A DNA stretch of 63,298 nt, filler included, from Conidiobolus incongruus B7586 (Eukaryota), in assembly GCA_000697335.1 (NCBI GenBank). It is 6 parts of 6 records of this genome, joined end to end, with 100 filler letters (N's around TTAATTAATTAA, not from the genome) between each part and the next. Parts side by side here need not be neighbours in the genome. Positions count along the whole stretch, not along the records: positions 60,076 to 63,298 come from JNEM01006461.1; 5 more parts are not named here. One strand, given 5' to 3'. Shown here piece after piece: positions 13,311 to 63,298 of this stretch; the stretch's first letter is position 1, and every line of letters begins with the position of its first letter. Below the pieces are notes generated by a model that was not told where the DNA came from, ran no database searches, and saw only the letters and a program-made list of their open reading frames with translations. A program made the translations under genes and the position numbers.

Positions 13311-13365
13311 CCCCTTCTCTCTTAACCTTAATCCTCAGAATTTCGTTTGTACTATAGTTTTATCC

Positions 13366-23306: not shown

Positions 23307-24318
23307 AATTATTATAATCTAACATCAAATATGGTAATAATTAAAATTAAATAAATCAAAATAATTTGATTAGTCATCAATGCTATTGTATGTATTAGTT
23401 TTGATAATTAATTACTGAGCTAATTGAAATATAAATATATGCATTTTGGAAGTATCTAAATGGAAGAGGTGAAGAATGTTTAATAGTAATAGCTTCAAAG
23501 CTATTGAATATATATCCAGCTATATCACAATTTTAAAATTGATATAATGTTAGCATAGCGATATTTCAGATTTAATTGATATGCTTAGCATTAGCCGATA
23601 GTGAATAATACTTGAAAATTATAAGAACATAGTGAACTATAGCAACTGAAACATGGAATTTAGTAATATGTATAATTTATTTATCAATGTTAATGTATTT
23701 ATTAATTATATTATTAAAAGTATATTAAACACAATATTCCATAGTTTGATATAGAATCATATTATATTATGCATACTGAGGTTTGAGACAAGATTGAAGT
23801 TCTAGTAATGTCAGAATATTAATATAAACTGAGTGTGTGATAAAATTCTAAGTTCTAAAATGCATTTTAATATCACCTATTATGATAATGATATATGCTA
23901 GCATTTTGAATAGCTCTTATATCAATTATTATTATTATTATTATTATTACTATTGTTAGTTATATTAAATAGCTTGAATTCAATTTTCAATTGTTTTAGT
24001 TTTATTTTCGATTGATTGATTGATGAACAATGGCAATTGTTCTGTATTTTTCCATATTGTTGAATTACCCGATGATTTGATTGATATTAAGGAGGTATAA
24101 TATCATTGGTCATCATCACTTTAGAAGTTGCCTTATAAATATTGGCAATTAGGTTTAGACCTACAAGCATACTTTCACACTTCAATTATCTGATTTATCA
24201 AGCTCTCCAGCATATCTACCTTTTCTATAGCCACTTAATTCAAAATGGGTAACGGTTATTCTACAAATTTCATCCCAGCCTCTGAACAACAATATGTACT
24301 TCTCGAACAATTGATCCA
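23307..24318 (+). repeat. Left arm of ~1.01-kb inverted repeat (partner 29371-30385)
   Basis: Starts AATTATTATAATCTAACATCAAATA, the reverse complement of 30361-30385. Identity was followed by eye to ...AATTGATCCA (24318). The only difference seen is (ATT)8 here versus 9 units in the right arm. Confidence 0.95.
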
Positions 24319-24490
24319 GCAAGCCAAAGAAAAGTCACCAAATTATTTGAATTTCGTTATTCTTAATTGTGCTCAAATCTATCCTGAAATTACTGAGAAT
24401 TTGAATGAACCAACCCATGATATTCTTAATCAAAACTCCCAGTATGAGCTTCTCTCAAGTAAATGTTTTAACCTGGTCTCAGCTTTCTAA
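24245..24490 (+). CDS. Small hypothetical protein A (81 aa) with N-myristoylation-like MGxxxS start; paralog of 29202-29444
   Basis: TATAAAT at 24134-24140 and CAAAATG start context. The first 30 aa are identical to the paralog. Synonymous-only differences at codons 25-30 (CAG CAA GCC AAA GAA AAG vs CAA CAG GCC AAG GAG AAG) indicate coding constraint. Confidence 0.8.
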   Translation: MGNGYSTNFIPASEQQYVLLEQLIQQAKEKSPNYLNFVILNCAQIYPEITENLNEPTHDILNQNSQYELLSSKCFNLVSAF

Positions 24491-29201: not shown

Positions 29202-29444
29202 TTAAACCACGGCAACCAAACTCAGAGTATTTTTTGATAGACATTCAAGAGGTTTATCATCAAGAAGCTTGTATGGGAGATTATGTATATTCCTTATATC
29301 TTCAAAGTGATTTTCAGTAGATGGATCGATAATATCACTCAAATAAATTTCTGGCTTCTCCTTGGCCTGTTGGATCAATTGTTCGAGAAGTACATATTGT
29401 TGTTCAGAGGCTGGGATGAAATTTGTAGAATAACCGTTACCCAT
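29202..29444 (-). CDS. Small hypothetical protein B (80 aa) with MGxxxS start; paralog of 24245-24490
   Basis: Same promoter and first 24 codons as paralog A (inside the IR). The remainder is divergent but colinear (xxxYL...ExLSxxxxxLVxx). Confidence 0.8.
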   Translation of the reverse strand: MGNGYSTNFIPASEQQYVLLEQLIQQAKEKPEIYLSDIIDPSTENHFEDIRNIHNLPYKLLDDKPLECLSKNTLSLVAVV

Positions 29445-29735
29445 TTTGAATTAAGTGGCTATAGAAAAGGTAGATATGCTGGAGAGCTTGATAAATCAGA
29501 TAATTGAAGTGTGAAAGTATGCTTGTAGGTCTAAACCTAATTGCCAATATTTATAAGGCAACTTCTAAAGTGATGATGACCAATGATATTATACCTCCTT
29601 AATATCAATCAAATCATCGGGTAATTCAACAATATGGAAAAATACAGAACAATTGCCATTGTTCATCAATCAATCAATCGAAAATAAAACTAAAACAATT
29701 GAAAATTGAATTCAAGCTATTTAATATAACTAACA

Positions 29736-29766
<31 letters not shown>

Positions 29767-30385
29767 TTGATATAAGAGCTATTCAAAATGCTAGCATATA
29801 TCATTATCATAATAGGTGATATTAAAATGCATTTTAGAACTTAGAATTTTATCACACACTCAGTTTATATTAATATTCTGACATTACTAGAACTTCAATC
29901 TTGTCTCAAACCTCAGTATGCATAATATAATATGATTCTATATCAAACTATGGAATATTGTGTTTAATATACTTTTAATAATATAATTAATAAATACATT
30001 AACATTGATAAATAAATTATACATATTACTAAATTCCATGTTTCAGTTGCTATAGTTCACTATGTTCTTATAATTTTCAAGTATTATTCACTATCGGCTA
30101 ATGCTAAGCATATCAATTAAATCTGAAATATCGCTATGCTAACATTATATCAATTTTAAAATTGTGATATAGCTGGATATATATTCAATAGCTTTGAAGC
30201 TATTACTATTAAACATTCTTCACCTCTTCCATTTAGATACTTCCAAAATGCATATATTTATATTTCAATTAGCTCAGTAATTAATTATCAAAACTAATAC
30301 ATACAATAGCATTGATGACTAATCAAATTATTTTGATTTATTTAATTTTAATTATTACCATATTTGATGTTAGATTATAATAATT
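29371..30385 (-). repeat. Right arm of ~1.01-kb inverted repeat
   Basis: Reverse complement of 23307-24318, 3 bp longer because of one extra AAT unit. It ends exactly at the contig end. Confidence 0.95.
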
Positions 30386-30485: not shown

Positions 30486-30854
30486 TCTTTTAAAGTTAAT
30501 TAATATATAAGTATATTTTTAAAAAAGGATTCAAGTATAATAATACTAATAAAAAAGATTTAATATATCTATAAATTACTATATATAATCATAAGAAAAA
30601 AAATATAGTTATATATTATTAAATATATCCCTTTATCTTAAAAACCTATAAATTTATAATTTATTTTGATTAAATATTAAAGTTTAATTTTTTGCTAATA
30701 ATTTATTAAATATATTTAAATATATTTATTTATTATCAAATAATATATTTTAATTATATATTAGAGTTTTAATAATTATATATATATAATTATTTTAGTT
30801 ATTAATAAAAATATATATATTTTTAATTTTATGACTTATTTTTTAGGGTTAATA
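30486..30854 (-). mobile_element. 5' end of a Tc1 (DD34E) element copy, truncated by the contig end
   Basis: The reverse complement aligns with 60311-~60690 (TIR ...AAATAAGTCATAAAATTAAAAATATAT; inner block AAATTTATAGGTTTTTAAGATAAAGGGATAT; start of the transposase). Flanked by TA. Confidence 0.85.
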
Positions 30855-32202
30855 TAATAGTTAATACTAATATACTATATTATTAACAAAATATAGTCTT
30901 AATTTTAAAAATAATATAAAGGAAATAAAAATAAAAATTAAGTGAAAAAAAAGCTTAGATTATAAGATAATTTAATATTATTTATAAAATTAATTTAGAT
31001 TTAAAAGTATATATTACCTATAAAACTTATAATAAATAAAATTATATAGAAATATAAATAAGAATTTAAATAACTAATCTTCTAGTAATTTTCCTTTATT
31101 ATAATAGTTCAAATCAATTTTTTCTAAATTTTAAAGTCTTACTATTACTAATTAGGTATGATAGTCTAATAGTTTCCCACTTTTAAAACTAAACTGACAT
31201 TATTAATATATATTAGATAAATCTATATATTAAAATCAAAAATTAATTTTTTATTTTGAAAAGATTAATTAAAATTATAATAATCCAATAATATCATATT
31301 ATTATTGAAAAAAAATTATTTTGTGTCATTTAGGAAATTATTGATAATAACTAACAATAATTAGCATTTTTTAAGTTTCCAAAACTTAAATAATAGTTCC
31401 TTTTATTTGATATATAATAAATTAACATAATTTCCAAATTTATATATATTAGTAATATATAGTGAAAATAAATATTATAAATTAGAATATATTATATTAC
31501 TTTATTAATTGTTTAGCAGTATTCAAATTTTTACTTTAATGATATAGTTTTTGAAAATGAAAAATAAATAATTCAAACATTAATCAAACATGACTAAAGT
31601 TATCATTGAACATAGTGTCTCAAAATTTTGTAAATAAATTAATTGGTAAAAATTTAAATACTTTCTATATGTTTGAAATTTGTAAAATTAAGATTAAAAA
31701 TTTTTAGCATTGTCAATAATCGGTTCTATTTATTATGAATTTATGTATTAATTAGAGCTTTAGCTCCAATGTATCCATATTGCAAGTAAGCTTTCCGAAT
31801 ATGATTGATCAGCCAAAGTTTAACATTTTTCGAATTTATAATTTCAGTAAAATTTAAATACGAATTTTAAATTAACTATGTATTCGGTTTCTAAATCAAT
31901 CAATTTACAACAAACAATCAAGTGAGTAGATTATTTTGAAATGATTTTCCTATATAATGTATTCATAAATATTATTCTTAACAAATATCAGAATAAGGTT
32001 AATATATTTCTTAAACAATATAAAACATTACCCAAAATTATATCATATTTTATTTTAATATTCAAACACAATATAAATAATGTGGAGAGAGTTGATGAAG
32101 GTGTAAAAATATTTGATATTTTCATTAAATATAAATATTCAGCAATTATATTTGATTAAAAAATCAGTTGATTGTTATTAAATATTAAGGCATCTTACTA
32201 CT

Positions 32203-35396: not shown

Positions 35397-35943
35397 TTCA
35401 ACCTTAATATACATTAATAAATACTACTAATTATATTCTGAAATCAAGTGTTGTGTTTGTTAAGCTTTCAATAACTTTATCTGTATATTCAAATTAATAT
35501 TACAATATATATGGAAGTTTCAACAAATATGGATGTATAATATTATTATTGTTTGAATTATATTTATATAGTAATTTTATTTGTATCAAAATTAATTTTT
35601 AGTATATATAGTGTACTTTAATATTTCCTTATATTGTAAAGCAAAATTTTAAAGCTATTTAATTTAATATAAGTTACAAACCGATATTTCTGATGATCAT
35701 ATATATTTCCTTAACCAGAATATATTTCTTTATTCCGTTATTTTAAATCATGGTGATATACTCCATTGAATATAAACAAAAATGAATTATATAATTCCTA
35801 AAACCCAATATTATATTGACTTATGAATAGTATATAATTTGTATTTTACTTATTTATTATTAATGAAATAAATGACAATGTAATAATTATATATGGTATT
35901 TTCTTGATTACAAGATCAAAGTCATCTTTAAAAATTTATAATA

Positions 35944-36629
35944 CACTAACCTACAAAAGTAAGTCATAAAATCAAAAATATATACATATTTTTTAATAAC
36001 AAAAGCAATTATATATATTAAATTACCTGAAACTATAATATATAATTAAGGTATATTATTTGATAATAAAAAATATATTTAGATATATTTAATCAACTAT
36101 TAGAAAAATATTAACCCTTATTATTTAACTAAGATAGGTTATAAATTTACAGGTTTTTGAGATAAAAGGATATATTTAATAATATATAACCATATCTTTT
36201 TTCTCTCTTTGTTATTATTTTATATAATATTTTATAGATATATTAAATTCTTTTTATTAATATCATTATGTTTAAATCCCTCACTAAAAAAATTTATTTT
36301 TGTATTAATCAATTTCATAAAAAAATAAATTAATTTATGATATTATTAAAATTACTAATGTTAACTAATTTACTATAATTAAAGCTATTAAAAATAACAA
36401 TAAAAATACATTTAAACTTCAATATATATAGATTATGAATTAATATAATAACAAGTATATTTATAAGTTAATTAATATAAATAAGTATAATATTATTGTA
36501 AAAATATAACAAGAATTATAAAATTAAATAAGAATATTGGTTAATACTAATATTATTATATATATTTTATATTAAAATAAATATTACTTATAATTTAAGA
36601 AAAAATATTGTTAATTAAAACATAATTTA
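35944..36629 (+). mobile_element. 5' half of a Tc1 (DD34E) element copy, truncated by the contig end
   Basis: TA then CACTAACCTACAAAAGTAAGTCATAAAATCAAAAA. Colinear with 60311-~60995 and retains the transposase ATG (ATG TTT AAA TCC CTC, ~36268). Confidence 0.9.
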
Positions 36630-41296: not shown

Positions 41297-41367
41297 GCAA
41301 TGGTGGTTTAGTGGTATAATTACCGCCTGCCACGCGGTAGACCGGGGTTCGATTCCCCGCCATTGCA
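41297..41367 (+). tRNA. tRNA-Gly(GCC), intronless
   Basis: GCAATGG/CCATTGC acceptor stem plus A discriminator. D-arm GTTTAGTGGTATAAT, anticodon arm ACCGC-CTGCCAC-GCGGT, T-arm CGGGG-TTCGATT-CCCCG. T-run terminator ~15 nt downstream. Confidence 0.97.
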
Positions 41368-43950: not shown

Positions 43951-44000
43951 ACTAAATCTTTTTATAATAATTATTTAAATTTAAAAAATTGAATTAAATA

Positions 44001-45306
44001 TTACTATAAAATCAAAGAAATGGGAAATTTTTTAATTTCTGATTTTTCATACTTATTATTAGTTTCAAATAAAAAAATATATACAAAACAAATGGGAAAA
44101 TAAATAATTTTGAATTATATATATATAATAATTTTTTTGATTAAAAAATTAATTTTTTAAAATTAATTGTTTAATTTAATCATGCTTAAACCAAATAATA
44201 ACCATCAAAAGTTTTTTATTTTAGTATTAGTAAAACTTAACCACAAACCCTCTAAAATCATTTAAAATTTACAAACAGCTTTTAATAATGAAGTATTATC
44301 TAAATTAACAATTTATTACTAGGTAAATTACTTAAAAATTAAGAAAAAAACTACTTAAAACCTACTAAAATCTAAAAGATTAATTTTAACTATCACTCTT
44401 TTAATTATTAATAAAGAGAAAAATTATATTAAAAAACACCTTTTTATTTTAGTTAAAGAACTATCAAAACACTTTAATATTAGTTATATAAGTATATTAT
44501 ATATATTAAAGTTTAAATTAAAATTAATTAATAAAAATATAAATTAAATACTTTATAATTTAACTAAAGCTTAAAAAAAAGCTAAAGTAGCTATTATTAA
44601 ACAAAACTTTCTAAAGTATAACTAGAAACTAAAACTTTTATAGTGAATTATTATAATTAAAAAATCTTAGATTTTTTTATATAATCTTTTACTAAAACAT
44701 AAATCAAAGTGTTAAATTAAGTTAAATTAACCTCCTTTATAAATTTTTTTAAATAAATACTTTATTGATAAGTGAATGTTAATTGTTATAATAGATTATA
44801 ATAGCATATATTATTTTTATTTAATTTTTAATAAAAAATTAATTAATAATAAACTTTATATTTTTTTTATATAAAACTATTTCTAATTGGTATTCTCAAT
44901 ATAATTTGAGAAAACTTATTATTTTGAATGATAATTATAAAATATATAAATTTAAAATCATAAAAACTTTCTAATTAAAAATAACTAGAAAAAACTACCA
45001 TATCTAATATATTCTTTAGATTATAACTTATGTAATTATAATAACTTTAAGCAATTAAAAAACTAGCTTATAAAAAAGAAAATTTTTACAAAAAAATTTA
45101 ATTGGTTTGTAAAATATCAAATTTTAGTCTTTAATAAAAAGAACTATTTTTTAAATATTAGATCTTTACTAAAAATATAGCAAAAAGTTATTAAAAATAA
45201 AAGAAATTATTAATTTTATAATATATATTTATTTTTACTTTTTTATATTACAATGTTTATTTTTTTTCAATCACAAAAAATTCCCATTATTTAAATTACA
45301 AAGTAA
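44001..45306 (+). mobile_element. Full-length (1306 bp) hypermutated mariner (DD34D) element
   Basis: TA on both sides, imperfect TIRs TTACT-N-AATGGGAA-TTTTT. Relic motifs after reverting C>T/G>A: *ILYNLT (WIPHNLT, i.e. WVPHEL), *IIIIKKS*IFLYN (RIITxDESWI), ILNDNYKIY (ILHDN..xH), LPYLIYSLDYNLCNY (LPHPxYSPDxxPCDY), IRSLLKI*QKVIKNKRNY (LPxRWQKVIxNxGNY). Confidence 0.88.
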
Positions 45307-46139
45307 TATTTTTAAAATTAATTACTTTAAAATTAGTTATTTAAATTTATTTTAAATTTATAAGTATAATTTATAGGTCAATTAAAAATTAAGTTCAAAT
45401 GTATTTGATTTTGATAATTTATGAATATCAATAATATTATTTAGTAAAATAAGCTATTGATTAGTTTATTATATTAAATATAATCAATATTTATAATTAA
45501 TTTTCAAGTGAATATCTCAATGAATATTTTAATAATTTAAAATTTTAAAATTTTTTTATTAATTATTTAAATTATTTTTTTAAAGAAATTTATTATATAT
45601 TTAATTATTTAATTATTTATCTTATAATGAAATCAAAGTATATTAATGATAAAAATATGATTTTAAATTAATTATAATAATTTATAATCAATTAGTTTTT
45701 AAATAAATAATTTAAAAATATGTCACTATAAGTTAATTAATATTAAAATTAAAATATTTGATAAAATATTAAATTATAATAGATTTTAATTAATAATTAT
45801 ATTATATTATATTATATTATATTATTTAATATATTATTACTTTGAATTTGAAATAATGAGAATTTTTAAATTTTGATTTTTCAAACATATTATTAATTTT
45901 AAATAAATAAATATACACAAAATAAATAATAAATAATAAATATATCTAATAATATTTTGATTAAAAAATTATCTTTTAAAATTGGTTATTTAATTTATTT
46001 ATATTTATATTAAATAATAAATANNNNNNNNNNNNNNNNNNNNNNNNNNNNNNNNNNNNNNNNNNNNTTAATTAATTAANNNNNNNNNNNNNNNNNNNNN
46101 NNNNNNNNNNNNNNNNNNNNNNNAAAAAAAAATTATTTA

Positions 46140-46646
46140 AAAATAAGTTTTATACTATTTTTTTAAATAAAAGTATTTAAAAATAAGTTTTATATTACTT
46201 TTTTAAATAAAAGTATTTTTAGTTAGAATTTTTAAAATAATTTAAAAAAACTTATTATTTTATTTAATAATTATAAAATATATAAATCTAAAACTATAAA
46301 AAAAATATTCTAATTAAAAATAATTAGAAAAAACTACTATATCTAATATATTCTTTAAATTATAACTTATTTAATTATAATGACTTTAAGCAATTAAAAA
46401 GCTAGCTTATAAAAAAGAAAATTTCTACAGAAAAATTTAATAAGTATATAAAATATTAAATTTTAGTCTTTAATAAAAAGAATTATTTTTTAGGTGTTAA
46501 AAGTTTGTTAAAAGTATCACAAAGAGTTATTAATAATAAAAGAAACTATTAAATTTATATTTTATATTTATTTTTATATGTTATATATCAAAATGATTAT
46601 TTATTTTCAATCACAAAAAATTCCCATTATTTAAATTATAGAGTAA
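46140..46646 (+). mobile_element. 3' part of a second mariner copy, truncated at the contig start
   Basis: Colinear with ~44850-45306, ending TCACAAAAAATTCCCATTATTTAAATTATAGAGTAA-TA. There is a ~40-bp tandem duplication at ~46140-46220. Confidence 0.87.
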
Positions 46647-49532
46647 TATTAATTAGATAATTAATTTAATATATTATAATCTATTTTTTTAAAAAAATTT
46701 TGATGTTGTATATTAATAAAATATAAAAATAAAAAAATAAAACCTTTTGTGTATATTATAGATATAATGTCTTATTAGTAGTTGATGATTGTGTATTTAT
46801 CAGAATTAAATAGTATTATATTTTTTTACTTGAATATGGCATTATGTACCAATAAAAACATATAATAATTATCAAATTTTTGAAGTTAATAGCAATTTTA
46901 TTAAATTTTTTAAAATAATAATTTTATATTATGAATTTAAAAATTGAGTAAAATATACACTTCTTAATCGAAATATGATATTATCTCATAATTATAAGTT
47001 CAATTTCTGATTAATTTTTTGAAATTAATCAAAATATTAATTTGGTAAATAGTGAATTGATTTTTTCAAATATCTTGGACAATAATATTGATCTGTATAA
47101 TTACGAAGCAATTACCAATTTTCATTAAAAGGCATATATTATTTGATATTTTAAAATCATAATCCATTACATTAAATATTGTGGATTCATTTAATTATGA
47201 AATAATTTTTTAAAAATAATAAATGTGGTCAAGTGATTTAGTAGTCGACAAGCCAAAGATAAAAAGCTAACAACTGTGGAGCATGACCTCACTTCTCTCT
47301 ACCAATTCGAAAGACCTCAAAAGCGCAAAAGAACTAAAGCCAATTCGAAAACTCAAAGACACTTCCATGACCCCAAGCTCAATAACTCAAGAAAGTACCT
47401 CATTATTAACAACGGAATCTCGTTAGAGTGCTAATAACTCGACACCTCCAACAAACTATTGAACTCTTTATAGGTAAGATCACTTCAGTTGAATTTGATA
47501 AATGTTCAAGAATTGTTAATGCTTAAAATTCTTTTGAAAATTAAGAGAATTCCAAATTGGATTAGAGTAAAAAAAATTGTGATTGTTTAATTTTTAAAAT
47601 AAGATTTAAATTAATTCAAATTGTGGGATCAACTCTGTTTTCCAATTGACTATTTACAAAAACTTTATCCAATATATTAAATTTCTAATTGGATTAAAAA
47701 ATAAGAATTATAATTAATAGCAACTTTCGATCAATATGCTTATATTTAAATTGAAATTTTTTGCGATTAATTACATAATGATTTTAATTATTATGTAAAA
47801 AGAATCTCTAATTTGATCCTAAATATTAATAAAAATGATTCAAAATTGAAATTATTTAATCCAATAATATTAATATTGTATAATACTGCCAATTAAAAAA
47901 TATATTCTATTTTAAACAATTGACTGGAAAAAATATACCAATAAAATCATATATTATATTGATTTCAATCACTATATGATCGTTATAGTATAGTAAAAGT
48001 GAATCCTAAAAAATATTTGAATTTTTATCAAATTTGATTTATATACTTGTTCAAATTGATTGTATCTTTAAATTCAAAATTATTAATCTATAAAATTGAA
48101 ATAATCTGGAAATTTAATAAAATTATTAAATATTTTCATTAACCTAATAAATAAATAATTATAAAAATTTTAATTTTGATATAGAAACAAGAGTTAAATA
48201 ATAAAAAATTTCAATTATTTTAATATATTATTTCTATTTTTTAATTTATTAAAAAATTTAAGGGATTGATTAAATATATTATATAAATAAATATATATAT
48301 ATAATTTTTTATGTGCGGAACAATCAGACTCCTTCCCCTAAGCAATTCAAAGAGATTACCTTATTCTGATCATGATGAGCTTTCAAACCACAAAAAGTTA
48401 TATTTATAATATACAAAATATATTACCTATAGAATTCTTCTTTGTCATTTCCTTATAATCAATAATTAATTTACTTGCTAATATAATTATATTAAATATA
48501 ACTAATATAACTAATATAACAATGAAAAAAATTATATTAAAATTATTGATTAAAAAATATTTCAATTTAACCAATCATATAATCTATATGAAAGTTAATA
48601 AAATATAAATATAAATTGTTTTAAGATCTTAATTACTTTGTAGATATGGATGAAATGACATTCATATAACAATTAGATCTGATAATTAGCCATATTATAA
48701 CTTTAATAGCATATATTATATTATGCAAATTTTTAAAATAAATTAATGGTATAATAAACAATATACTCAACATTTTATAAATCTCATTTTACTATATTAA
48801 ATAAAATTTTAATAATTAATTTAAATTTTTATTTTACCATTATATATATATTTCTTTAAAGTATTATTTATTTCAAATTCCCTTAATTTAAAAAAATTAT
48901 TTTTCAATTATATTATAATAATTAATATAAATATTTATATTGAGGAGTAGTTTAATAAATTAATAACCCTTTAATTTTAATTTTAATATTCAATATTTTA
49001 ATTATTTAATAATTCATTAATTCAATCAATTAAATAGTTATTAAAATATTAAACCTAGTACTATTATTATTTGAACAATTGTTAACACTTGAAATTTATG
49101 AAAAATTTATATTTTAAAGGTATTTACTTTGAATTCTCTATAATAATTATTTATTAAATATAAGATAAAAAAATATCAATAATCATTACATTACAGTAAT
49201 ATTTTACTTAATGGGATTATATTGATTCTTAACATTGAACTATAAATTCCTTTATTTTAGAAATAAATTAAATATTTGAAAAAATGATATGATCATTGAA
49301 ACTAACCTTAATTACAATTATATTTAAATTATTATTATATTAGAAACTATGATATGAATAAATTGAATAAAAATGAATTGATATGAAAATAATTTAAAAT
49401 TACAAAATTTAAAAAACAAAATATAAACTCTTATGAGAATTTATATGAATATAATATTAAAGAAATCATATTAATTTCTTGAAAAATTAAATTGATATTG
49501 ATAATACTTGATGAGTTGAAAATAATTAATAA

Positions 49533-51206
49533 TTAAGTTGCTATTTCTTTAGTTTCGCGCACTGGTTGATCAGCTTGAAGAACATCAGTTTGACACTTGT
49601 CCAAGTCGACATCTGGCAAGCCTAAAGCAATGATGAAGCAAACACATGCGAAGACTGTCGAAATGGTACACATAAGCCATTGACTATCACCTAAAGCGGT
49701 CATCCAGTTCTCCTTGATTTCTTCAGGCAATTTGGCTATTTTTTCAGTATCAGCAATAAGGTCAGGAATATTTTCATGAAAATTTTCAGGGAGATATTTA
49801 GCTAAATTCTTCGCTAGACTGTGATTCCAAATGGCAGCACCTACGGAACTGGCAACAGAAGTGAAGACGCTGGTAACGAGAGTGTCAACGGCGGAAATAT
49901 TAGCAATATCAGAGAAATCAACGGTAGATTGAAGGACGACTAAACCAGAACAAGCTGCAACACCAGCACCAGCACCAATAACAGCTTCAACAAACACTAC
50001 CAAGGCTTCTGGTGTATGAGGGTGACGCGAAGGAAGTGTAAGGCCAACGCCGATCGCGTTGACTACGATGGCACCCCATACAATATAGCGGACTTGGCGG
50101 ACCTTTCGAAGCACTATTGCACAAATGAAACCCAAGATGTACCAAGTGATGCGATAGCCTAAATTAATCATGGCGACATGAGCTGCACTGATTTCACGGA
50201 CCAAAGCCAAGTATGCATACATGTATTGCCAAGTGAGACCCGAGTCAAACATAAGGAATGCGCGAACGAGAATCATGACCATAGCTGCTCTGTTGCGTAA
50301 GAGACGGTAACTTACAAGTGAATGCTTGGTATATTTAATCTCCCAAATAATAAATCCTACAATAATGAAGGCCCCGAAAATGATGGGAACAAATATTGCT
50401 GGAGCAGCCCAGCCCTCTTCATAACGAACAACGAGGGTGAAGGGAGCAAGGATACAGCTCAAACCAGCGGTTAATAAAATAATACCAATCCAGTCGACTT
50501 TAAGGAGGGAGGCAGCCTTGTAATTGAAATTTGGTAATAAGCGTTTAGCTCTAAACTGTAAACGGAATAAGCCTAACAAGATAGGAGCACCAGTCAAAAC
50601 GACGAAAATAGCTTGGCAATTATACAACCAACGCCACTTGTCATCATTTTCGGCAGCAGAAATAACTGGAAGGGCAAGTCCAAGAGCAAGAAGACTAGGA
50701 AGCCAAGCTAAAATGAATCCAAAACCACGATTTCTAGGAGCAAGAAAATCGGCTAAAATAATAGGAACGATAAGAGCGCGACCAGTTTCACCAAGACCTG
50801 CAATGATGTAGCCAGCACTGTATACACCAAAGTTATTTGCAGTTCCAGTAATGACTGAGCCAATAATGATAATTAACAACGCAATAGTAAGCATGAGACC
50901 ACGTCCGTACACATCCGAGAGGGCAGCGAAAAGAGGGATGAACAAAATACCTAACAATGTATTCAAGGTTTGAACAATTGGGCCAATATCGAATGATTCA
51001 AAACTCGAAGAAATAATATAATCTAAGGAAAATATAGCGTTGGAAAGGATGGCGATGGTTAAACCCAACAGCAGAACACCAGTATAGATAGTCCAATTAT
51101 CTACATTATTACGAATTTGAGCCATCTTCAATACGATATTTTCGTTTGAATCATTTTGGGAATTTTGAATAGATTCTTCTTGATCTGTAGGTTTCAATTC
51201 ACTCAT
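49533..51206 (-). CDS. MFS siderophore-iron transporter (ARN/Sit1/Str/MirB family, ~14 TM), 557 aa
   Basis: FAALSDVYGRG (MFS motif A), IILADFLAPRNRG, WRW, VDWIGIILLTAGL..IL.PFTL....GW....I....I.G....VGF..WE, RLLRNR, GAAIWN..L.KNL.KYLP. These are hallmark features of the fungal siderophore transporter family. Confidence 0.9.
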   Translation of the reverse strand: MSELKPTDQEESIQNSQNDSNENIVLKMAQIRNNVDNWTIYTGVLLLGLTIAILSNAIFSLDYIISSSFESFDIGPIVQTLNTLLGILFIPLFAALSDVYGRGLMLTIALLIIIIGSVITGTANNFGVYSAGYIIAGLGETGRALIVPIILADFLAPRNRGFGFILAWLPSLLALGLALPVISAAENDDKWRWLYNCQAIFVVLTGAPILLGLFRLQFRAKRLLPNFNYKAASLLKVDWIGIILLTAGLSCILAPFTLVVRYEEGWAAPAIFVPIIFGAFIIVGFIIWEIKYTKHSLVSYRLLRNRAAMVMILVRAFLMFDSGLTWQYMYAYLALVREISAAHVAMINLGYRITWYILGFICAIVLRKVRQVRYIVWGAIVVNAIGVGLTLPSRHPHTPEALVVFVEAVIGAGAGVAACSGLVVLQSTVDFSDIANISAVDTLVTSVFTSVASSVGAAIWNHSLAKNLAKYLPENFHENIPDLIADTEKIAKLPEEIKENWMTALGDSQWLMCTISTVFACVCFIIALGLPDVDLDKCQTDVLQADQPVRETKEIAT

Positions 51207-51424
51207 TTTTAGTTAAAACTACATGATTTGAGAGCGTTACATATTATTATTTATATCACTCTATATCAATTAATTCCACATCGCATCATCAATGTATTAA
51301 GTAATATTAGCGGTATTTTCAACTAGTTTTATCCCCAATAATTCATATATTCCTTTTTTAACCGAAATTTAACACAATCTGGTACTTGGATTATTAAAAT
51401 CCAATCATTAAGATTCCATTTTGC

Positions 51425-51433
51425 ATCTGATAA
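51425..51433 (+). promoter_or_regulatory. ATCTGATAA, extended GATA site matching the iron-repressor (SreA/SRE/Fep1/Urbs1) consensus ATCWGATAA
   Basis: 219 bp upstream of the transporter ATG. The motif also occurs several times elsewhere in the window, so support is positional only. Confidence 0.45.
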
Positions 51434-54400
51434 ATGGTTCACTAAAAGTACCAAATAAAAATCAACTATTATATTTATGATATCAATAAATTTTTCTCAC
51501 TTTTAAAAAATTTTTTAATACTCAAACCAATAATATAAATTATCCTATAATAAATCACTTTTATTAATTATTATAAAAATTTAAATTATCAATTTAAAAT
51601 TGAAAAAAAACAAAATAATTTATTTCCCCCATCCTAAAATGATAATAATTATAAAAGGTTATATTGATAATATTAACTATTTGAGTTTTAATATTATCAA
51701 TTCAAATTTTTTTAAATAGGATAAAATTAATTCAATTGATCTAGAAATAGATATATGAATGATAAAACTGATTAAAACATATTCTACGTATAGAATTTTA
51801 TTAAAATTACTGAATAAATTCATATTTACAGTCTCTCAAAGAGTTTTATACGTTGTCTCTAATTTTAATATTAAATTTTTCTAATTATCCAATACTATAT
51901 AGGTTTACTAATTATTAGTATTTGTTTAAAATAAAATATATTAACTTTTATAACTTTTTTTTCTTTCATTTTTGATATAATTTTCCTAATTTGATGAATA
52001 TGTTAAATTTATTAATATCATTAAAATTTCTTTTATTGTTTGTTTCTAATATATTGATCCACTCAAATTTTGTAATTTTAAACAATTGAATTTTAATAAT
52101 AATAATATTTAAAACTATAAATTAATTATTCTATCAAATAGACCGAAAAAATTCATGTGGTTAATTTTATATATGTTAATTCAAATGTGAATTTTTAAAA
52201 TGTAAGATAATATAAACAATTCAATTATGATTATTTGGAAATATTTCTATCTATCTAAAATAATTTTAATTAAAAATATTAACGTATATCTCTATCATGA
52301 TATCATATATTATCAATTATCTAATTAATCCAATGTCTTTTATTTGATAATAGTCAATTTTATAGACTTTAGAACTTATAAAAAAATATCAAAATCTTAT
52401 ATAACCTTTTTGGTATTATAAGTCTGAATATATATTGAATTTTAAGTAATATCTAACAATTATTATTCTTATTAGATAATTCAAAATAAGCTAATTAATA
52501 AAATAATCTATATACAATTATTCACATGAAATTATGAGATATATATTTTGGTATCAGGATCTTTATAAAATTTCTCCTGTTATAAAAAACATTCTAAAAA
52601 TTTATATTAAATTTTAAATATTTAATCGATATATATTATTTCCAATATTAATTTTTTAGTATATTTACCTCATGTTTTTTAATAAATAATTTATAAACAT
52701 ATTATAACAATTATATAATGATTTTATTTTATTATTTGATCGATTTATAAAATCAAAAAAAAATTTAAATTTGATTAATATACCTAATAATAATTTAAGG
52801 TATAAAATTAATGAATTATATATATTTTAATATATTAATATATAGATAATTTATAACTTGGCTAAATTAATATTATATAAAATTATCAAGTTTTAATAAA
52901 AAAATAAATTTCAATATATATTTAAAAGTTTCGAATTATAGCGATACATAAAAATCATATCTATATTTATTGAGCTAAATAACTAAACATTATCAAAATA
53001 TAATTCAGTAATTTTATCCATAATATGAACAGAGTATATTTCTAAATATTAGTTGATATTCCAAAACTCAAAAAATATGAGCAAAAAAAGATTCGATTAT
53101 ATCATTGTATTAGATTTGTACTAGATTAGACAAGACCTAGTGAGAGCGCAAAGGAAGCTGAACTGGATTACACGATTAACTGATAAACTATACCAAAGCC
53201 ACGTGCGTTCTCTTCCTCCTATGAGGTTACAGATGTTCAACTATTATACCAGAATAAATCAAATTATGTATGTGAAATTTCAGAGAATGATTATGGATTT
53301 GGGACAATTATTAATATCTAAATTATTTTTTTATTATCCAAAGTACTAGTACTTTAAAAATTAAAAAAATAATTAAAAAATTATTTCGACTTATTTAACA
53401 CCATATTATATTTTAAATTTTCAAGTTTTAAAAATATAATAATATTATAACATCTAATGAAACTTCCTAAAAATACAATTCTAATCCTAATGAATATTTA
53501 TAGATTTTCATATTATTTTGAAAATTACTTGAAACTCTTATAATAAATATAAACAACCATTATTTATGATAATCATTATATGATTTATATAACATTGATT
53601 AAAATATATCAAATTAACCAAATTTATAATATAGTTAATCCATAAAATATCCAATATATAGATCAAATTAATTACTTTGATATTTAACAAATATTATAAA
53701 TATATAACAACATTAGTTGAACTTTTTTGATTTAATAAATTTTATTATATTATTTTATTTAAATTAAAATTTTATATTCAATATATTACTTATATAGTTA
53801 TAAATTTAAATTAATTTAATCAAAAATTTAACTATATATATATATATAAATAATATGTAATTTCACTAAGTATTTGATTAAAATATATATTTTATTGTGA
53901 AAATTATTTAATCAAATGAATTCAAATTCAAATGAGTAAAATTATTATTTTTCCTTATAATATTCTTTTAAAAGTATAAAATCAATATATATTTATAATA
54001 TTATAGACAAAATTGACTATAAATTAAATTTGATATAATTAAAAAATTGAATTTTTGGAATATATTTTAAATAATAAAGATTTTTTAAAATTTATTACTA
54101 ATTTTGTTATTTTTACTTATTATCTTAAATAAACTGGTATTTCATTCGTTTTTAATATATTATGATATTTAATTATTAATATTTGAATATAAAAATTAAT
54201 TACTTAAAATAACCTCTTTTTTGACAAAAATGAATCATATTTAATGAATAAATTAATATTAATATTTAATATTGGTATATTTGAATGAAAAAACAAAAAT
54301 AATATTAAACAAGGTAATTCATAAATTATTATTTAATTATCAAATAAAAAACCAAATGGTATTAGGTGATTAATAAAAAATTTTCAATTTAATATTATAT

Positions 54401-55395
54401 AGATATAATCTTCATATAAAATCCATATGAAAACTCACAAAATATATCAAAAAATATAATATTTTAATTTATTATCTGGAGATTTTTTTAAATATAAACT
54501 ATTATTTATTTTATTTTATTTTATTTTTAATTTAAAAATATTATTTTATTAATTCTTGTTATAATTTAAAATCAAATTATATTTTTAAATTCTTTCAAAT
54601 ATATTAATTAAGTCAAATGTAAAATAAAGCTATCTAAATAATAGTAATAGTAAATTATATAAGATAAAATAAAAAAGGTATTTATATATATTTATAAAAT
54701 AATGGATTATTATTAGTTATATGCAATATTACATATATGTAAGATTTATATAATATATTTAAAATATATTAATAATACATAATTTAAAAATAATAGATTG
54801 TTAGATATTTAAATTAAAAATTAATATAATAATAGTCAAATAATTAAAGATATTGAAGATTTTATTAAATAGTTTATGGATATTATATCTTATATTTATT
54901 ATAAAAATATTCAAACCCGATATATATTAATTATTATGAATATAATATTGATATAATAACTTCAAATTTAATATATAAATCTATTATTAAGTTATTATAA
55001 ATATGCTATTATAGTTCGTTTGAAATTCTAATATATATTTATAGATTTCAATATTATATAGTTTTTCTTTTAAATATATTTAGATTATTTTAATACCATT
55101 TAATTCTATTTTTTAATAATTTTAAATAAATGCCAATATATTATTTTAAGTTTTATATCTTTATTATAAAGTCAAAAGGTTAATTATTTTAATTAATTTT
55201 GACAATTTGTTCCTCAATCAATATTTTAAAATATATCATATATTGAGAAAATATATAGTTTAATTCGACAAAAATTTTTCAAAAAATTTCAAAGAATATC
55301 ATAAATAATCATCAAGTGAATTTTTTTAATCCAATAATATATGTAAATTGTTTAAAATCATAATAGCATATTTAATATTATTATTAAGGTATATA

Positions 55396-55433
<38 letters not shown>

Positions 55434-55870
55434 TATCTTATATTATAATAATATTAATGAAATCTTGAAAATTTGCTATACTTTTGCCATTTCTTTTTAG
55501 ATTTTAAAACAAATTTACATTTTTACAATAAATAAAATTAAAATATTTTAATTCATTATCATATAATATTCATATCAAAGTTTTCAATCATGAATATCTA
55601 TTCTAAATATAAAACATATTTACATTCTCCAATAATTTGATTTCAAAATATTTTTTATAATTAATCCAAGAAATAAGTTTATCAAATTCTTTATATATAA
55701 TTGATGAATTTTTTGAATAAAAATTTGATTATTAGTTATATTTTCGTTATAAAAATTTCAATGACAATTATTGCCAAATATATTAGAATTTATTATATAG
55801 AGCTAATGTTTTCTATTAATTAAGGTTGCTCCATATATTCATGTATATATGGGAATATAATTAAAATATA

Positions 55871-57586
55871 CTAATTTATTAAAATAATAATAAATTCATA
55901 AGATTTTCGAACTGACACCTTTTGGTGAAATTCGAATTCAATAACATGGATCATGTTTCGTTGACATTTATCCAAATCAATGCTTGGTAAGGTGAGAGCA
56001 ATTGCGAAGGAAACACATGCTAATACAGTTGAAATGGCTCACATAAGCCATTGACTTTCACCTAAAGCTTTGATCCAATTTTCTTTAAATTCAATTGGTA
56101 TTTCTGCATGGTTTTGGATATCTGCAAGATCTCCAATCATTTTATGAAGATGTTCAGGAAGATGGCTAATTGAATTCTTTCTTAAACTTAAGTTCTAAAT
56201 GTTATTTCTGATAGCAGCAGAGACTGAAGTGAAGACATTAGCAGTGAGAGTGTGTAATGCGGAGATGTTGTCGATATCGGTAAAATCTACAGTAGATTAA
56301 AGAACAACTAAACCAGCACAAGCAGAAATAGCAGAACTTGCACCAATAACAGCTTTATCAAAGACAACAAACCATTCAGGAGTGTGTAGATAACGTGAAC
56401 CAAAGGTAAGACCAATACCAATAGTGTTGATTACAAGAGCAATTCAAATAATGGGGCGAGCATGGTTAAATTTTCTTAAAAATAATGCACAAATCAGACC
56501 TGTGATGAACCAAGTAACACAGAAACCCAAATAGATCTTGGCGGCATGATTAGCACAAATTTCACGAGCTAAAGTCAAATATGGGATCATGTATTGCTAG
56601 GTGAAAGCTGAGTTAAACATTATGAAAGCTCGGACTAAAATCATGGCCATAGCGGCTCTGTTTTTTAAGAGTCTATAACTAATAAGCTGGTATTTAGTAT
56701 ATTTAACTTGCCAAAATAAGGATCCAATAATGATGACAGTCCCAAAAATAATTAGTACAAATATGGCTGGAGCAGCCCAACCTTCTTCAGGATAACGAAC
56801 AACAAAATTGAAAGGAATAAGGATGCAACCTAAACCAGAGGATAGTAATATAATACCGATCCAGTCGACTTCCTTAAAGGAAGAAGCTTGATAGTTAAAA
56901 TTAGATAACAAGCGCTGAGCTCTGCATTGTAAGCGAAATAAACCGAACAAGATAGAAAGGCCAGTAATAGCAGTTAATACAGCCTGACTGTTAAACAACC
57001 AGCGCCACTTTTCAGCTTTTGAATTTTGGGTAACGACAATAAGGGGAAGAGAAGCTCCGAGAGCAATACAACCAGGAAACCAATTTATAACGAAGCCAAA
57101 GCCACGATTTCTAGGAGTAAGAAAATTGGCTGAAATAATAGGAATGATAAGTGCATGACTTAACTCTCCAAATCCTGCAATGATTTTACCAGTACTATAT
57201 GTTCCAAGATTTCTTGTACTACCATTAATAATTAGACCAATAATACTAATGATTAAAGTGAATGTAAGAATTACATTATGGCCGTATACATCAGACAAAA
57301 CAGCGAAGAGTGGAATGAACAGAATGCCTAACAGATTGTTGATAATTTCTATGACTGTACTAATATCGAAAGCTTTGAAAGAAGAATCTATAATATAATC
57401 AATTTGAAAATTTGCTCCAGAAATAATAGCAATAGTAAAACTTAGTAACAAAACACCAATATAGATGATCCAATTGTCTGCATTGTGGCGAATTTGAGCC
57501 ATTTTCAAAACAATATTATCATTGGATTCATTATTGTGAGAATATTGGGGAGATGGGCCTCCATCTTGGTGTTTGGTATCGCTCAT
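55871..57586 (-). pseudogene. Pseudogene paralog of the MFS siderophore transporter
   Basis: Colinear with 49533-51206 over its full length. In-frame stops at 56597 (TAG, Trp), 56444 (TGA, Trp), 56297 (TAA, Gln), 56195 (TAG, Trp) and 56039 (TGA, Cys), plus a +1 frameshift near 55979 before DLDKCQ. The 329-aa ORF in the track is only its 5' part. Confidence 0.93.
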
Positions 57587-60075
57587 TTTTAAACAAGATG
57601 ATATACTACTCTGATTCCAAAAATATATACATCAAATCTTTGAGATATTTTTTATCAAAAATATTATTTATTAAAATTTTTCAACAAATATTTCCAAATT
57701 TCTCATAAAAATTTTCATTAACAGTTTGTATGCATAATTGTTATCAATATAATATTTTTCAATAACCAATAAAATAACTAAAAAATATATAAATTATTGA
57801 TTTCACATAATTATTTTTATTTTGGTTATTATTACAATATGATAGGTTTTAAAAAAATTTTATAATATTTATTAAAATTTCATTAATTATTCAAAATGTT
57901 TCTCATCATAATTCAAAATTTTAAATTACTGAATAATAATCTTTCTATTTATTATTTTGAAATTCAGAATTAATTCAAGTCAATAATAACTTATTAAAGT
58001 ATGTCATCAGCCTCCTTATAGAATTATTTAATAAGTTATTTTAATATAATTTAACGAATAAATTAAAAATCCTGGATAATCCTATTTTACATTGGATATA
58101 ATATTAAAATCATTTAATTTGTTGAATAAAATTGAATTTACTGAACACAAATTAAAAGATTAATATTAGAATTTGAGTTTACATTTTTGTTTTTTATCCA
58201 ATTAATTGATCAGATAATATTACAATTAGCATAAACATTAAACAAGTTGATGACAAATATGGAAATTTTTTTAAATTTTTTAAAGGAATATGAAATTATA
58301 TACAAATTCAGTCAATGAATATGAGGTTGAAATTATTAATTCGTTATTATCGCAGTAAGTAGATCCTGGAACATGGTATTGATGACGCGCTAGAGCAGTC
58401 GTACCAAAATGATTTGAATTAAGTTGCTAGCGATGAGGGATGAGTATTCGACAACTTGAGCAACGACTAGTTGGGAGAGTGTCGGTTCAAACAACCGTTG
58501 ATAAATTGGTATTGATGCTAGATTATAGATTATTTTTCAGAGGATTCTGAGTATGGATGCTTTATTAGCTATTAGTAGCAGGTAACTGGGAGTAGAAAAG
58601 TCTTTTCATATGTTTGTTGTACGATTAGTTTTCATGCTCTATTTTATTAGTGTGGGGCCATAGTTGTGTTTTGTAAGCTTAATAATGAGAGAAGAATTAT
58701 GCAACTTCTACATATGTTAAGGGAATTTAGGTATGAATTTAAGTACACTGGTTTATATTTCCGAATTGTGATAGTTATCAATAAGCTTTTTTGTTCTTAT
58801 CAGATTGAATTACCATGATAATTTTAAAGTATTCAAGCATTAGAGCATTATTAGTTAATATTCTTTTGATTTGAATGCTCTGGTCAAATTTAAATAATTT
58901 ATATTTGAAATTTAACTATGTATAATGTATTTAAAATATGAATTTGTAGTGATGAAATCAGTATATTATTACTTAATTAGATTTTTACATAACTTTAATC
59001 ATTTGAAATTGAAAATTTTTCGCCCGTATATCAAAAATTTGATATATTAATTTTAAAATATTATGAAATTATCGAAAATCAAATTCTGATTGGTTTAAAA
59101 AATATTAATTTATCATTTGAGATAATTATATTGATTGAAGAGAATTATATTGTGAGAGATAAATAAAACTCAATATGCATATAATATTATATAAATATCG
59201 AGGAATATACTTAAAATAAATTTTGTTCAATAAAATTATTATAATTATCAAATACTTAAATAAGATAACTTTGAAATATTATAATATAATTAACTAGATT
59301 ATTTAATAATTAATTAAATTATATTTATTTTAAGTGGCTTAATTTGATTTTAAATAATTTAATATATATAATATATAACTAATAAAGACCTCAAATATTG
59401 TATCATATTATATTAACTAAATATTATAATGACTTAAATATCATTAGGTTTTATTGGAATTTAACTAATTTAAATCATATTCTTTATAAATATTAACCTA
59501 TTATTTTTAAATATTAAAAATATTCAAAGTTACCATAGATTAACATTAAATAATTACCAAAAACTAAAGAGTTTTATATAATCTTTATGGCAAATTCAAT
59601 TCTAAATTTAATAAATAATTATTAAAATATATAATATATATAATATATATATTTTTAAATCGAATTTAATATTAATTTATCATATATTTAAGTAAATACT
59701 CTAATAATACCAAATGATATTTAACTTATATATATATATATATATATAAATCATTCATTATTTTTATTTAATAATTAGATATAAAGATTATTATAAACTT
59801 TTTATAAAAAATTTAATGATATTTAATAAAGTTTTAAAATATTATTTGGATATATAAAAGATTTTATTAATAATAAATAATATATATTATAATAAATATT
59901 ATATAAAATAGCTAAAAATTTTCTTTTCAACTAATATATTTAATTTAGAAAAATATTTGATCTATTTATATTAACNNNNNNNNNNNNNNNNNNNNNNNNN
60001 NNNNNNNNNNNNNNNNNNNTTAATTAATTAANNNNNNNNNNNNNNNNNNNNNNNNNNNNNNNNNNNNNNNNNNNN

Positions 60076-62155
60076 ATAATATATGCTATTTTTATTTAAT
60101 TCTTAAAGTAAAATTAATTAATAATAAACTCTCTATTGTTTTTTTAAATAAATGTATTTTTAATTAGTATTCTTAATATAATTTGAGAGAACTTATTATT
60201 TTACATGATAATTATAAAATATATAAATTTAAAGCTTTAAAAAACTTTCTAATTAAAAATAAATAGAAAAAACTACTATATCTAGTATATTTTTTAGATT
60301 ATACCTTATACACTAACTTGTAAAAGTAAGTTATAAAATCAAAAATATATATATTTTAATTAATAACTAAAACAATTATATATATTAAATTACTTAAAAC
60401 TATAATATATAATTAAAGTATATTATTTAATAATAAATAAATATATTTAGATATATTTAATACTATTAGTAAAAATATTAACCTTTATTATTTAACTAAG
60501 GTAAGTTATAAATTTACAGGTTTTTGAGATAAAAGGATATATTTAACAATATATAACCATATCTTTTTTCTCTCTTTGTTATTATTTTATATAATATTTT
60601 ACAAATATACTAAATTTTTTTTATTAATATTATTATACTTAAATCCCTCTCTAAAAAAATCTACTTGTGTATTAATCAACTTTATAAAAAAGGTAAATCA
60701 ACTTATAATATTGTTAGAATTACTAGTGTTAGTTAGTTTACTATAGTTAAAATTATTATGAATAGCAATAAAGAAACATTTAAACTTAAACTTAAGTGTG
60801 TTAAAATTATAGATAAACATAATAAGAAGTATATTTATAGGTTAATTAATATAAGCAAGTGTAGTACTACTATAGAAATATAACAAGAACTATAAAACTA
60901 TATAAGAATATTAGTTAGCATTAATACTATTATATATATTTTATATTAATATAGATACCACTTATACTTTAAGAAAAAACACCCTTAACTAAAAAAATCC
61001 TATTATAAAACTAGGTAAAAATTTAAATATTGCTACTAATGTTAAATTAAAACTAATTAGAATAAGGTTATTTAGTTTAATGAAACAAAAATATACTTTA
61101 GTAGATTTGATAAAAAAGTTAGATACTTTAAAAAAGATACAGAATTACTTTGTGACTATTATATTAATTTTACCTAAAAGTATAATAGTAGGTTAATTAT
61201 TGTTTAAGGATATATATTGTTTTTAAGTGTAAAGTATCTTTATAAAGTTAATAAGGGAATTAATACTAAAATATATTAAAGTATTCTAAACAATAAATTA
61301 AAAAAAACTATTGAATAATATAGGTTAAATAAATCTAATGTTATTTTCTAGTAAGATAATGTTTTTTGCTATACTATAGCTTCTACTACCAAATAGCTTA
61401 AAAATAACAAAATAACAGTTATAAAGTAGCTTCTTCAATTTTTTAACTTTAATCTAATTAAACACCTTTAGGATTAGTTAAAAAAAGCTATTAAAGTTTT
61501 CCCCCCAACAAAAAATTTAAATCAACTTTAAAAATATATTTAAGAAATATAAAACAAGATTAACTTTTTTTAATATAAGAAGTTAATTGATTCTATACCC
61601 TATAAACTTAAAGAAGTTAAAAAAGTTAAAGGTAGATACATTAAATTTTAATTATTTTTATCACTAAAAACCTATAAATTTATAACTCACCTTAGGTAAA
61701 ATTTAAAGGTTTATATTTTAACTAATTAATAGTTAAATATCATCATTTAATGATATATATAACTAATAAATATAATAGATTTTAATTATTTAATTTAAGT
61801 TTATTTTATTAAATATTAATCAAGTTATTAATAAAAATATAGGTGTTTTTGATTTTATAACTTATTTTTGTAAGTTAGTGTATAATAATAATTGCTTTAA
61901 ATAATTAAAAAACTAGCTTATAGAAAAGAAAATTTTTGTTAAAAAATTTAATTAGTTTATAAAATATTAAATTTTAATTTTTAATAAAAAAACTATTTTT
62001 TAATTGTTTAAAGCTTGTTAAAAATATAACAAAAAGCTATTAATAGTAAAAAAACTATTAAATTTATATTGTATATTTATTTTTATATATTTTATATTAA
62101 AATGTTTATTTATTTTTAATTGCAAAAATTTCCCAATATTAAAAATATAAAGTAA
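60076..62155 (+). mobile_element. 3' part of a third mariner copy, interrupted by a Tc1 insertion (mariner segments 60076-60310 and 61883-62155)
   Basis: Both flanks are colinear with 44798-45306. HDN...YSPDxxPxD spacing is 34 residues across the insertion. It ends TTTCCCAATATTAAAAATATAAAGTAA-TA. Confidence 0.88.
60311..61880 (+). mobile_element. Full-length (1570 bp) hypermutated Tc1 (DD34E) element with TA TSD
   Basis: TIR CACTAACTTGTAAAAGTAAGTTATAAAATCAAAAA vs 3' reverse complement CACTAACTTACAAAAATAAGTTATAAAATCAAAAA, with TA either side. Relic transposase: *NKVI*FNETK (WxKVIWSDETK), VIF**DNVFCYT (VIFQQDNAPCHT), *LLQFFNFNLIKHL* (WPPQSPDLNPIEHLW), KLIDSIPYKLKEVKKVKGRYIKF. D-to-E spacing is 34. 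Confidence 0.93.
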
Positions 62156-63298
62156 TATTATTGAATTTATTATAGTTCTATTAATTATATACTACTTTTT
62201 TAATATCTTTATTTTGAAATAAACTTTGAAAATTATTATTATTATTATTTATAATAAACATCATATAAACATTAAAATTAAAAACCAAATTAATATAAAA
62301 TCAATTATTTGTCAAAATTCAATATGATATAAAGATAAATATAATAATATATTTCTATAAAATTAAAATATTAAATCTTGTGCTATAGAAAATTATATTT
62401 AATATTATAATATATTAAATTAATTTTAATATTTGACAGATTGACATCTTTTTAGTTGAATAATTTCTCATGTCAAGGTTAAATATTCTTAATAAACTTA
62501 TAAGTTAAAAACTAATAATTTGATATTCAATTTTCTGATCAATATACCTGGGCTTTAATTTGATGGATTTTAACAAATTTATTTTAATTTCTTTTTGATA
62601 GTATGAAAATATTTATTTCTATTAAGTCATTAAACATTATTTATAATAACCAATAATGTTTGAATTATATATAATAAATATACATTATATACACATTATC
62701 CAGAAATTAAATTTAGATATTAAATTAATAATATACTAGTTTAATATTTTCCAAAAATATACATAACTTATATCTTTCAATTTTGATTATATGAATTTGA
62801 AATGTTTTAAACTCATTCAAATATTGAATCAAAAACACTAAATGGAATTATTGTCAAAGTAAACATATATTGATTATTGACCAGAGTATATTTTGAAATT
62901 GTTTTCAATTACAAATTAATAAGTCAAATCGATTAAATTTAATAAAAACATAATAATCAATCTTTTTTTATAATAAGAAACCAAAATTGGATCCTTTGCG
63001 TTTCAAATTATAATATCTAATGAATAACATGTAAATTAAAATATTTTAAGTGATGAAATAAAGATCAGTTAATATAATACTATATAGATAAATATCCCTA
63101 TTTTATCAACGATATAGTTAATTTTTAAAATTAAATTACTTATATTTTATATCATTTAAAAAATTTTTTGTATCATTGAACTTTAATAAATATATTAATA
63201 TATTATTATTGTATAGTTAATTTAATATATATATAGGAATCTTTTTCTTATAGATATATTTTTTAAATGCCAAAAACATTTATAATAATATAAGTTTT

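Follow-up and report, generated by a model that had tools for sequence, protein, structure and literature searches.

Homologues of RID are recorded from Pezizomycotina and from a small number of other Dikarya, and none is reported for Zoopagomycota in the accessible part of a survey that includes two Conidiobolus genomes (PMC5751038). A kingdom-wide screen from 2025, in its available portion, describes RIP-like signatures as unique to Ascomycota and scores C. coronatus as ‘no_rip’ (PMC12543289). Within the Entomophthorales, a composite index above zero covers 24.2% of Zoophthora radicans and 2.4–5.7% of three relatives, with major caveats; according to the available text, Conidiobolus and Neoconidiobolus were left out of that RIP panel and the methylase candidates are not interpretable as RID (PMC11105155). 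In Zymoseptoria tritici, a Dim2-dependent mitotic mutator causes C>T changes at CA in transposons, as described in the accessible sections of PMC8016269. 5mC has been found in repeats of Phycomyces and of the zoopagomycete Linderina (PMC11258239, available excerpt), and three further sources, in the portions available, serve as background only (PMC7862722, PMC13297926, bioRxiv 2023.01.30.526367). A literature search that left most subscription journals outside its reach yielded neither a methyltransferase list for Conidiobolus nor a study that uses alignments to trace mutation of this kind in that genus.

The stretch of DNA considered here, referred to as the window, is 63,298 nucleotides long and consists of six contigs joined by gaps, with an AT-rich composition (GC mostly 10–25%). 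The gaps, at 23207, 30386, 36630, 46024 and 59976, are spacer and not biology, each consisting of 44 N, TTAATTAATTAA and a further 44 N; four of the five touch transposon copies. A previous inspection of this DNA, the sequence-only reading, proposed that its transposons had been erased by RIP-like C>T/G>A hypermutation, possibly in a fungus outside the Dikarya. In the full-length Tc1-type element (Table 1), a mutator changed about 60% of the testable C:G pairs to T:A, acting on CpA and CpG far more than on CpT and CpC, and within the 63-kb window this hypermutation is confined to repeats and transposons.

Table 1. Transposon copies, control sequences and their positions in the window.
Feature	Position	Strand	Evidence or remark
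Tc1-type DNA transposon, full length, 1,570 bp, GC 16.4%, 0 CpG	60311..61880	+	inverted-repeat ends
Left long terminal inverted repeat of Tc1 element, ~225 bp	60311..60534	+	77% identity to right repeat, with gaps
Right long terminal inverted repeat of Tc1 element	61656..61880	-	inverted-repeat comparison
Inactivated transposase frame of 339 codons with 24 internal stops (TAA/TAG)	60635..61651	+	alignment to intact P0017
Tc1 motif quoted in the sequence-only reading	61427..61477	+	sequence and conserved columns
Second Tc1 copy, 5' part, cut by gap, GC 12.4%, 0 CpG	35941..36620	+	86% identity
Third Tc1 copy, 5' end, cut by gap, GC 8.6%, 0 CpG	30488..30859	-	84% identity
Mariner-like element, full length, 1,316 bp, 37-nt terminal inverted repeats, GC 13.5%, 0 CpG	43996..45311	+	
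Second mariner-like copy, split by gap	45797..46692	+	3' part on contig of the MFS genes
Mariner-like copy interrupted by Tc1, left part	60079..60310	+	87% to 44806–45031
Interrupted mariner-like copy, right part	61883..62203	+	83% to 45033–45320 and 46372–46692
Intact MFS transporter gene, control and host marker	49533..51206	-	1/193 obligate C/G changed
MFS transporter pseudogene, control	55945..57586	-	5 in-frame stops, 0 frameshifts, CpG kept
Inverted duplicate arm, 1,044 bp, control	23307..24350	+	98.9% identity, not hypermutated
Inverted duplicate, other arm, control	29339..30385	-	sequence comparison

Judging from one gene family, the host is most likely a relative of Conidiobolus (Entomophthorales, Zoopagomycota). 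The protein of the intact MFS gene had 15 matches, of which 11 lie at 53–69% identity, four of these being from Conidiobolus coronatus, and the next stands at 24%; the host's own exact protein was absent from the collection searched. These matches agree with the suspected non-Dikarya host and point to a Conidiobolus relative, not to a RIP-positive ascomycete. The proposed identification through an LSU fragment yielded nothing, as Rfam detects no LSU rRNA in the window and its sole match there is a tRNA gene at 41297–41367 (+). In metagenome contigs, none of 90 candidate stretches was confirmed as a relative of the MFS gene. Elsewhere in the window, small genes at 38541–39406 and 37445–37744 (-) have apparent signal peptides and cysteines, two of these genes forming a tandem pair at 73% identity; the one that was scanned matches no Pfam family. 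A Ser/Pro-rich frame at 13297–14037 (+) ends in what we take, from its motif, to be a C2H2-like zinc finger (no Pfam match at E 0.001).

The full-length element fits the Tc1 (DD34E) group on its inverted repeats, its TA target duplication and a transposase that, through its relative P0017, would carry an N-terminal HTH. TA stands on each side of the element, and the outer 63 nt of the terminal inverted repeats are 89% complementary. When its stops are read as X, the transposase frame matches 618 of 1.84 billion proteins at E ≤0.001. The best match, P0017, is an intact transposase of 338 residues (E 4e-56). Its gap-free alignment to the frame spans 329 residues with 36% identity, and the protein contains DDE_3 and HTH_Tnp_Tc3_2 above the Pfam cut-offs; the broken copy itself scores under the cut-off (E 0.0097). 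The first codon of the frame, ATA, pairs with the start Met of P0017, and the catalytic positions 149 (AAT), 241 (GAT) and 276 (AAA) give DD34E spacing. The codons quoted in the sequence-only reading are present, and its description of a preserved frame filled with TAA and TAG is accurate for all 339 codons, which contain no frameshift and whose stops, including the terminal one, are 17 TAA and 8 TAG with no TGA. A degenerate DNA pattern for the Tc1 family had no match in metagenome contigs.

The direction of change was read by taking the expected residues at Tc1 sites from relatives, which assumes that the ancestor was alike, and some of the resulting counts are chance fits. Mismatches to P0017 number 209, of which 116 fit a C/G ancestor that became T/A in the copy and 5 fit the opposite change, with two transversion controls acting on the same A and T letters explaining 22 and 32. 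The columns that 93 intact homologues conserve hold 49 mismatches; 39 of them fit C>T/G>A and none the opposite, and the transversion controls, which had equal opportunity, account for 5 and 4. A further comparison used 26 closer relatives (5 plus the 21 best matches) and columns conserved at 70% or 90%; identity or C>T/G>A alone covers 161 of the 170 columns at the lower threshold and 93 of the 96 at the higher one. The statement that every deviation is explained in this way therefore stands for 161 columns and is too strong for the remaining nine, which are mostly conservative changes. All ten Trp positions of P0017 read TAG or TAA in the copy and never TGA, so the G of the CpA context was lost every time. 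The two strands were affected to a similar degree (C>T in 48/84, G>A in 86/131). TpA/ApT stands at 1.35 in Tc1 versus 0.89 in intergenic DNA and the substrate index at 0.47 versus 1.38.

The extent of mutation was counted only at codon positions 1 and 2 where the amino acid forces C or G. On this basis 92 of 156 obligate C/G sites in the Tc1 frame are mutated, or 55–62% by other column sets. Where the neighbouring base is fixed by the amino acid as well, the mutated fraction is 20/23 for CpA and 11/12 for CpG (about 90%), compared with 9/20 for CpT and 7/24 for CpC (30–45%). CpA lies above CpT and CpC combined (P 8e-5) and shows no difference from CpG. An A on the 5' side protects cytosine (3/14 mutated versus 42/63 otherwise, P 0.003), and A precedes 49% of the remaining cytosines in repeats versus 32% in intergenic DNA. 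Not one CpG is left in 4,321 bp of repeats, where the intergenic ratio would predict 14.5 (P 5e-7). Decay restricted to CpG is ruled out by the CpA count and by the variable CpT and CpC places described below, and the context is wider than either CpG or CpA alone, as had been suspected from the sequence.

Contigs from two sequencing runs of one sample (X1 and X4), which is possibly the source of the window, were aligned to Tc1 at 80% likeness. Tc1 is matched by 32,147 of 493,904 records in X1 and by 41,368 of 1,490,999 in X4, and the element is likely present in many copies, probably hundreds. Variable places on Tc1 comprise 384 transitions and 22 transversions in X1 (384/406) and 389 and 22 in X4, although the transversion count may be incomplete and some differences are uncounted. 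In X1, 184 of the 263 C/G positions in the aligned part of Tc1 appear as T/A in some other contigs; just 66 of all 263 positions lie in a context able to descend from CpG, so at least 118 of the variable places are CpT or CpC. Among the 40 listed of 423 difference rows, 36 are transitions and 26 of these have a 3' T, as would follow from CpG and CpA being close to saturated in most copies.

Within the window, too, the copies differ mutually at C/G sites. Transitions and transversions number 70:17 between the main and second Tc1 copies, 33:11 between the main and third, and 39:21 between the two truncated ones. In the second copy the coding part (52 transitions and 13 transversions in 368 bp relative to the main copy) is about 2.5 times more diverged than the 5' part (18 and 4 in 310 bp), in transitions and transversions alike. 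Such a joint rise would be seen under a cumulative process, or if the copy were a mosaic, which is possible. Losses in the second copy are patchy and clustered (5/38, then 40/62), with a weak same-strand excess (P 0.01–0.05); those in the main copy show no clustering (P 0.08–0.7). At the 3' end of the main copy, C>T (3/12) and G>A (13/16) are out of balance in one of six bins (P 0.006, uncorrected), and a test for strand-polarised tracts had a mixed outcome.

A second family, named mariner-like on our assumption from its size, repeats and motif likeness, had no match in Pfam or PDB that would mark a DD34D transposase, and the protein atlas gave no result. The main Tc1 element sits at a TA inside a copy of this family, and its flanks match consecutive parts of 44806–45320. 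Between mariner-like copies, 55–63% of C/G sites differ versus 6–7% of A/T sites, and the more diverged copies have lower GC. Pairs of copies show transition:transversion counts of 12:12, 26:20, 39:37, 20:15 and 28:24 (50–57% transitions). The expectation that differences between copies would be mostly transitions holds for Tc1 and only narrowly for the mariner-like copies.

Genes, pseudogenes and intergenic DNA of the same window provide the controls. The MFS pseudogene, 60% identical to its intact neighbour, has 24 of 174 obligate C/G sites changed by C>T or G>A and 18 columns changed otherwise, and by this one pseudogene a background C>T bias is present in this genome. C/G loss is 51/92 in Tc1 versus 24/174 in the pseudogene (P 2e-12), and the crude ratio of C>T to transversions is 62 versus 5.8, with a single pseudogene and a possibly incomplete transversion count behind it. 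In sliding windows the composite index exceeds 0.3 over transposon copies only and is at most 0.19 in 11 other segments. Intergenic DNA, similar in GC to the repeats, has 177 CpG in 29,202 bp (observed/expected 0.72). A pseudogene lying 100–400 bp from a mariner-like element keeps 7 CpG in 300 bp, and there is no sign of mutation spreading beyond the element edges.

The proposal that mutation is targeted to repeats, with a spectrum that single-copy neutral DNA does not share, is upheld by these comparisons. Its extension to the AT richness of the genome and to its many pseudogenes is not: a genome made AT-rich by hypermutation is excluded by the ordinary intergenic dinucleotides given above and by two pseudogenes that keep CpG. 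One broken gene, at 42950–43850 (-), has stops and frameshifts, keeps CpG and adjoins a mariner-like element; it presumably resembles the lariat debranching enzyme DBR1, with no Pfam match for an 82-residue piece.

The window also contains a 1,044-bp inverted duplicate whose arms lie 5 kb apart and form both ends of a 7-kb contig, with a CAP-domain gene between them. A small gene (MGNGYSTNF...) begins at the end of each arm, with 3' parts that differ between the two. The duplicate is a recent duplication, a gene conversion or an assembly effect. Its arms differ by 3 transversions and, among 264 C/G sites, by 5 transitions, where 4.4 transitions would be expected at the pseudogene ratio and 47 at the Tc1 ratio. 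The 8 substitutions have P ~0.01 under the Tc1 ratio, in a single case whose arms abut gaps and which may postdate the last sexual cycle.

The reading preferred here, with a probability of roughly 55%, is a cytosine mutator confined to transposons that likely works via DNA methylation on transposon chromatin and not through a one-off duplication test. A DIM-2/DNMT1-type methyltransferase, probably guided by heterochromatin, would methylate transposon cytosines in CG and non-CG contexts, and methylated C would turn into T when deamination, spontaneous or helped by an enzyme, goes unrepaired. Copies would have mutated independently after insertion, with damage growing with age until the transposase is dead. 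A cumulative process is favoured because transitions scale with transversions and GC in mariner-like copies falls with divergence, and chromatin targeting because the duplicate, which is not a transposon, follows the background ratio. Counting against methylation, the accessible parts of two studies report that, among ten Dikarya genomes, signatures at CpA or CpT occur only with a RID-class gene and CpG-only signatures with a Masc2-class gene (PMC4352252), and describe Zoopagomycota as 5mC-poor (PMC11258239). Repeated RIP rounds would also scale with age, and the patchy losses of the second copy also fit discrete events. The outcome equals that of RIP; membership in RIP is not implied. A true equivalent of RIP, in which homology would be sensed in the sexual (zygospore) phase and a methyltransferase, RID-like or unrelated, would mutate in bursts, is possible but rather doubtful. 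The extent and indices in Tc1 are RIP-like, variable places are overwhelmingly transitions, CpA is a main target and mutation ends at element edges; to these may be added the patchy second-copy losses with their same-strand excess, the imbalance at the main-copy 3' end and the Zoophthora radicans indices (PMC11105155, available text). In C. coronatus, repeats >1 kb number 0 at 95–100% identity and 555 at 80–95% in the available portion of PMC12543289, a pattern that short-read collapse gives as well. Such recognition sits poorly with the spared duplicate of 98.9% identity, with unclustered losses in the main copy, with CpG mutated as often as CpA, and with the Ascomycota-only signatures and ‘no_rip’ score in the part of that same screen cited above (PMC12543289).

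An AID/APOBEC-like cytidine deaminase that edits single-stranded transposon DNA would produce pure C>T in all four 3' contexts and an effect of the 5' base, as seen here; it is nonetheless highly unlikely, given that both strands are about equally affected and that a 3' purine is the main determinant. Cut-and-paste elements are also not known to pass through a long single-stranded intermediate, which counts against it. That old, unselected DNA simply reflects a C>T bias across the genome, with no special process, is largely refuted and retains very little probability. Such a bias would suit the AT-rich genome and the C>T bias of the pseudogene itself, which leans to CpR without significance (15/83 versus 9/91, P 0.13). 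Tc1, however, has proportionally fewer transversions than the pseudogene (22/1,570 versus 10/388) and yet four times its C/G loss, in a comparison with one pseudogene, and the repeats lack the CpG that intergenic DNA of similar GC retains. Least probable of all is a foreign origin, in which the copies were mutated in a RIP-positive ascomycete and arrived by contamination, mis-assembly or transfer. A gap does separate the main Tc1 element from the MFS genes, but a mariner-like copy shares the gap-free contig 46124–59975 with both of them and other copies continue without a gap into ordinary host DNA. The run with the numerous Tc1 records (X1) also contains the MFS gene, the C/G sites that remain vary between copies, and a copy carrying 24 stops could not have spread alone. 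Contamination is rejected on this continuity from transposon to host, the abundance of copies and their differing C/G sites.

Whichever of the two leading mechanisms applies, a transposon-killing mutator is implied in a lineage described as 5mC-poor and without a reported RID. That Zoopagomycota run a RIP-equivalent defence at CpA and CpG, without known RID or a dikaryon, is a tentative idea and on balance unlikely; if true, repeat-directed mutagenesis is older than the Dikarya or evolved twice, with Conidiobolus as a culturable model. The AT-rich non-coding background suggests why k-mer screens may miss such cases. RIP-like defence outside the Dikarya thereby becomes a testable question: for a relative of Conidiobolus whose transposons are heavily hypermutated outside CpG, the window supplies direction, context and a control from the same genome.

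RIP as known from Neurospora crassa and the Pezizomycotina, with RID and DIM-2, shares with this locus the dense, repeat-confined change of C:G to T:A, CpA as a main target, the gain of TpA and a transposase ruined by stops in an intact frame. It differs in that the host here belongs to the Zoopagomycota, CpG equals CpA in rate and a 1-kb duplicate of near-perfect identity has escaped hypermutation. The Dim2 mutator of Zymoseptoria tritici serves as the nearest working model; it too is confined to transposons and directed at CpA, and both are plausibly cumulative and linked to methylation. There, according to the available sections, >98% of C>T changes fall at CA and CG is spared (PMC8016269), whereas here CpG is mutated in 11 of 12 cases and CpT and CpC lose 30–45%; Z. 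tritici is also an ascomycete that has rid. The decay of CpG (TpCpG) in rusts and Microbotryum, associated with the Masc2/DNMT1 class, resembles the total loss of CpG from repeats without RID (PMC4352252, in part), but mutation of CpA fixed by Trp, Cys, Gln and His goes beyond CpG-only decay. Transposons of Tuber melanosporum and Aspergillus, in the accessible text of the same study, show a preference for both CpG and CpA as seen here, though these are ascomycetes and Tuber possesses the RID and Dim-2 classes (PMC4352252). Zoophthora radicans and other Entomophthorales belong to the same order and have a composite RIP index >0 in repeats; that study, in its available part, relies on dinucleotide indices only (PMC11105155), whereas direction, sequence context and a within-genome control were measured for the present elements.
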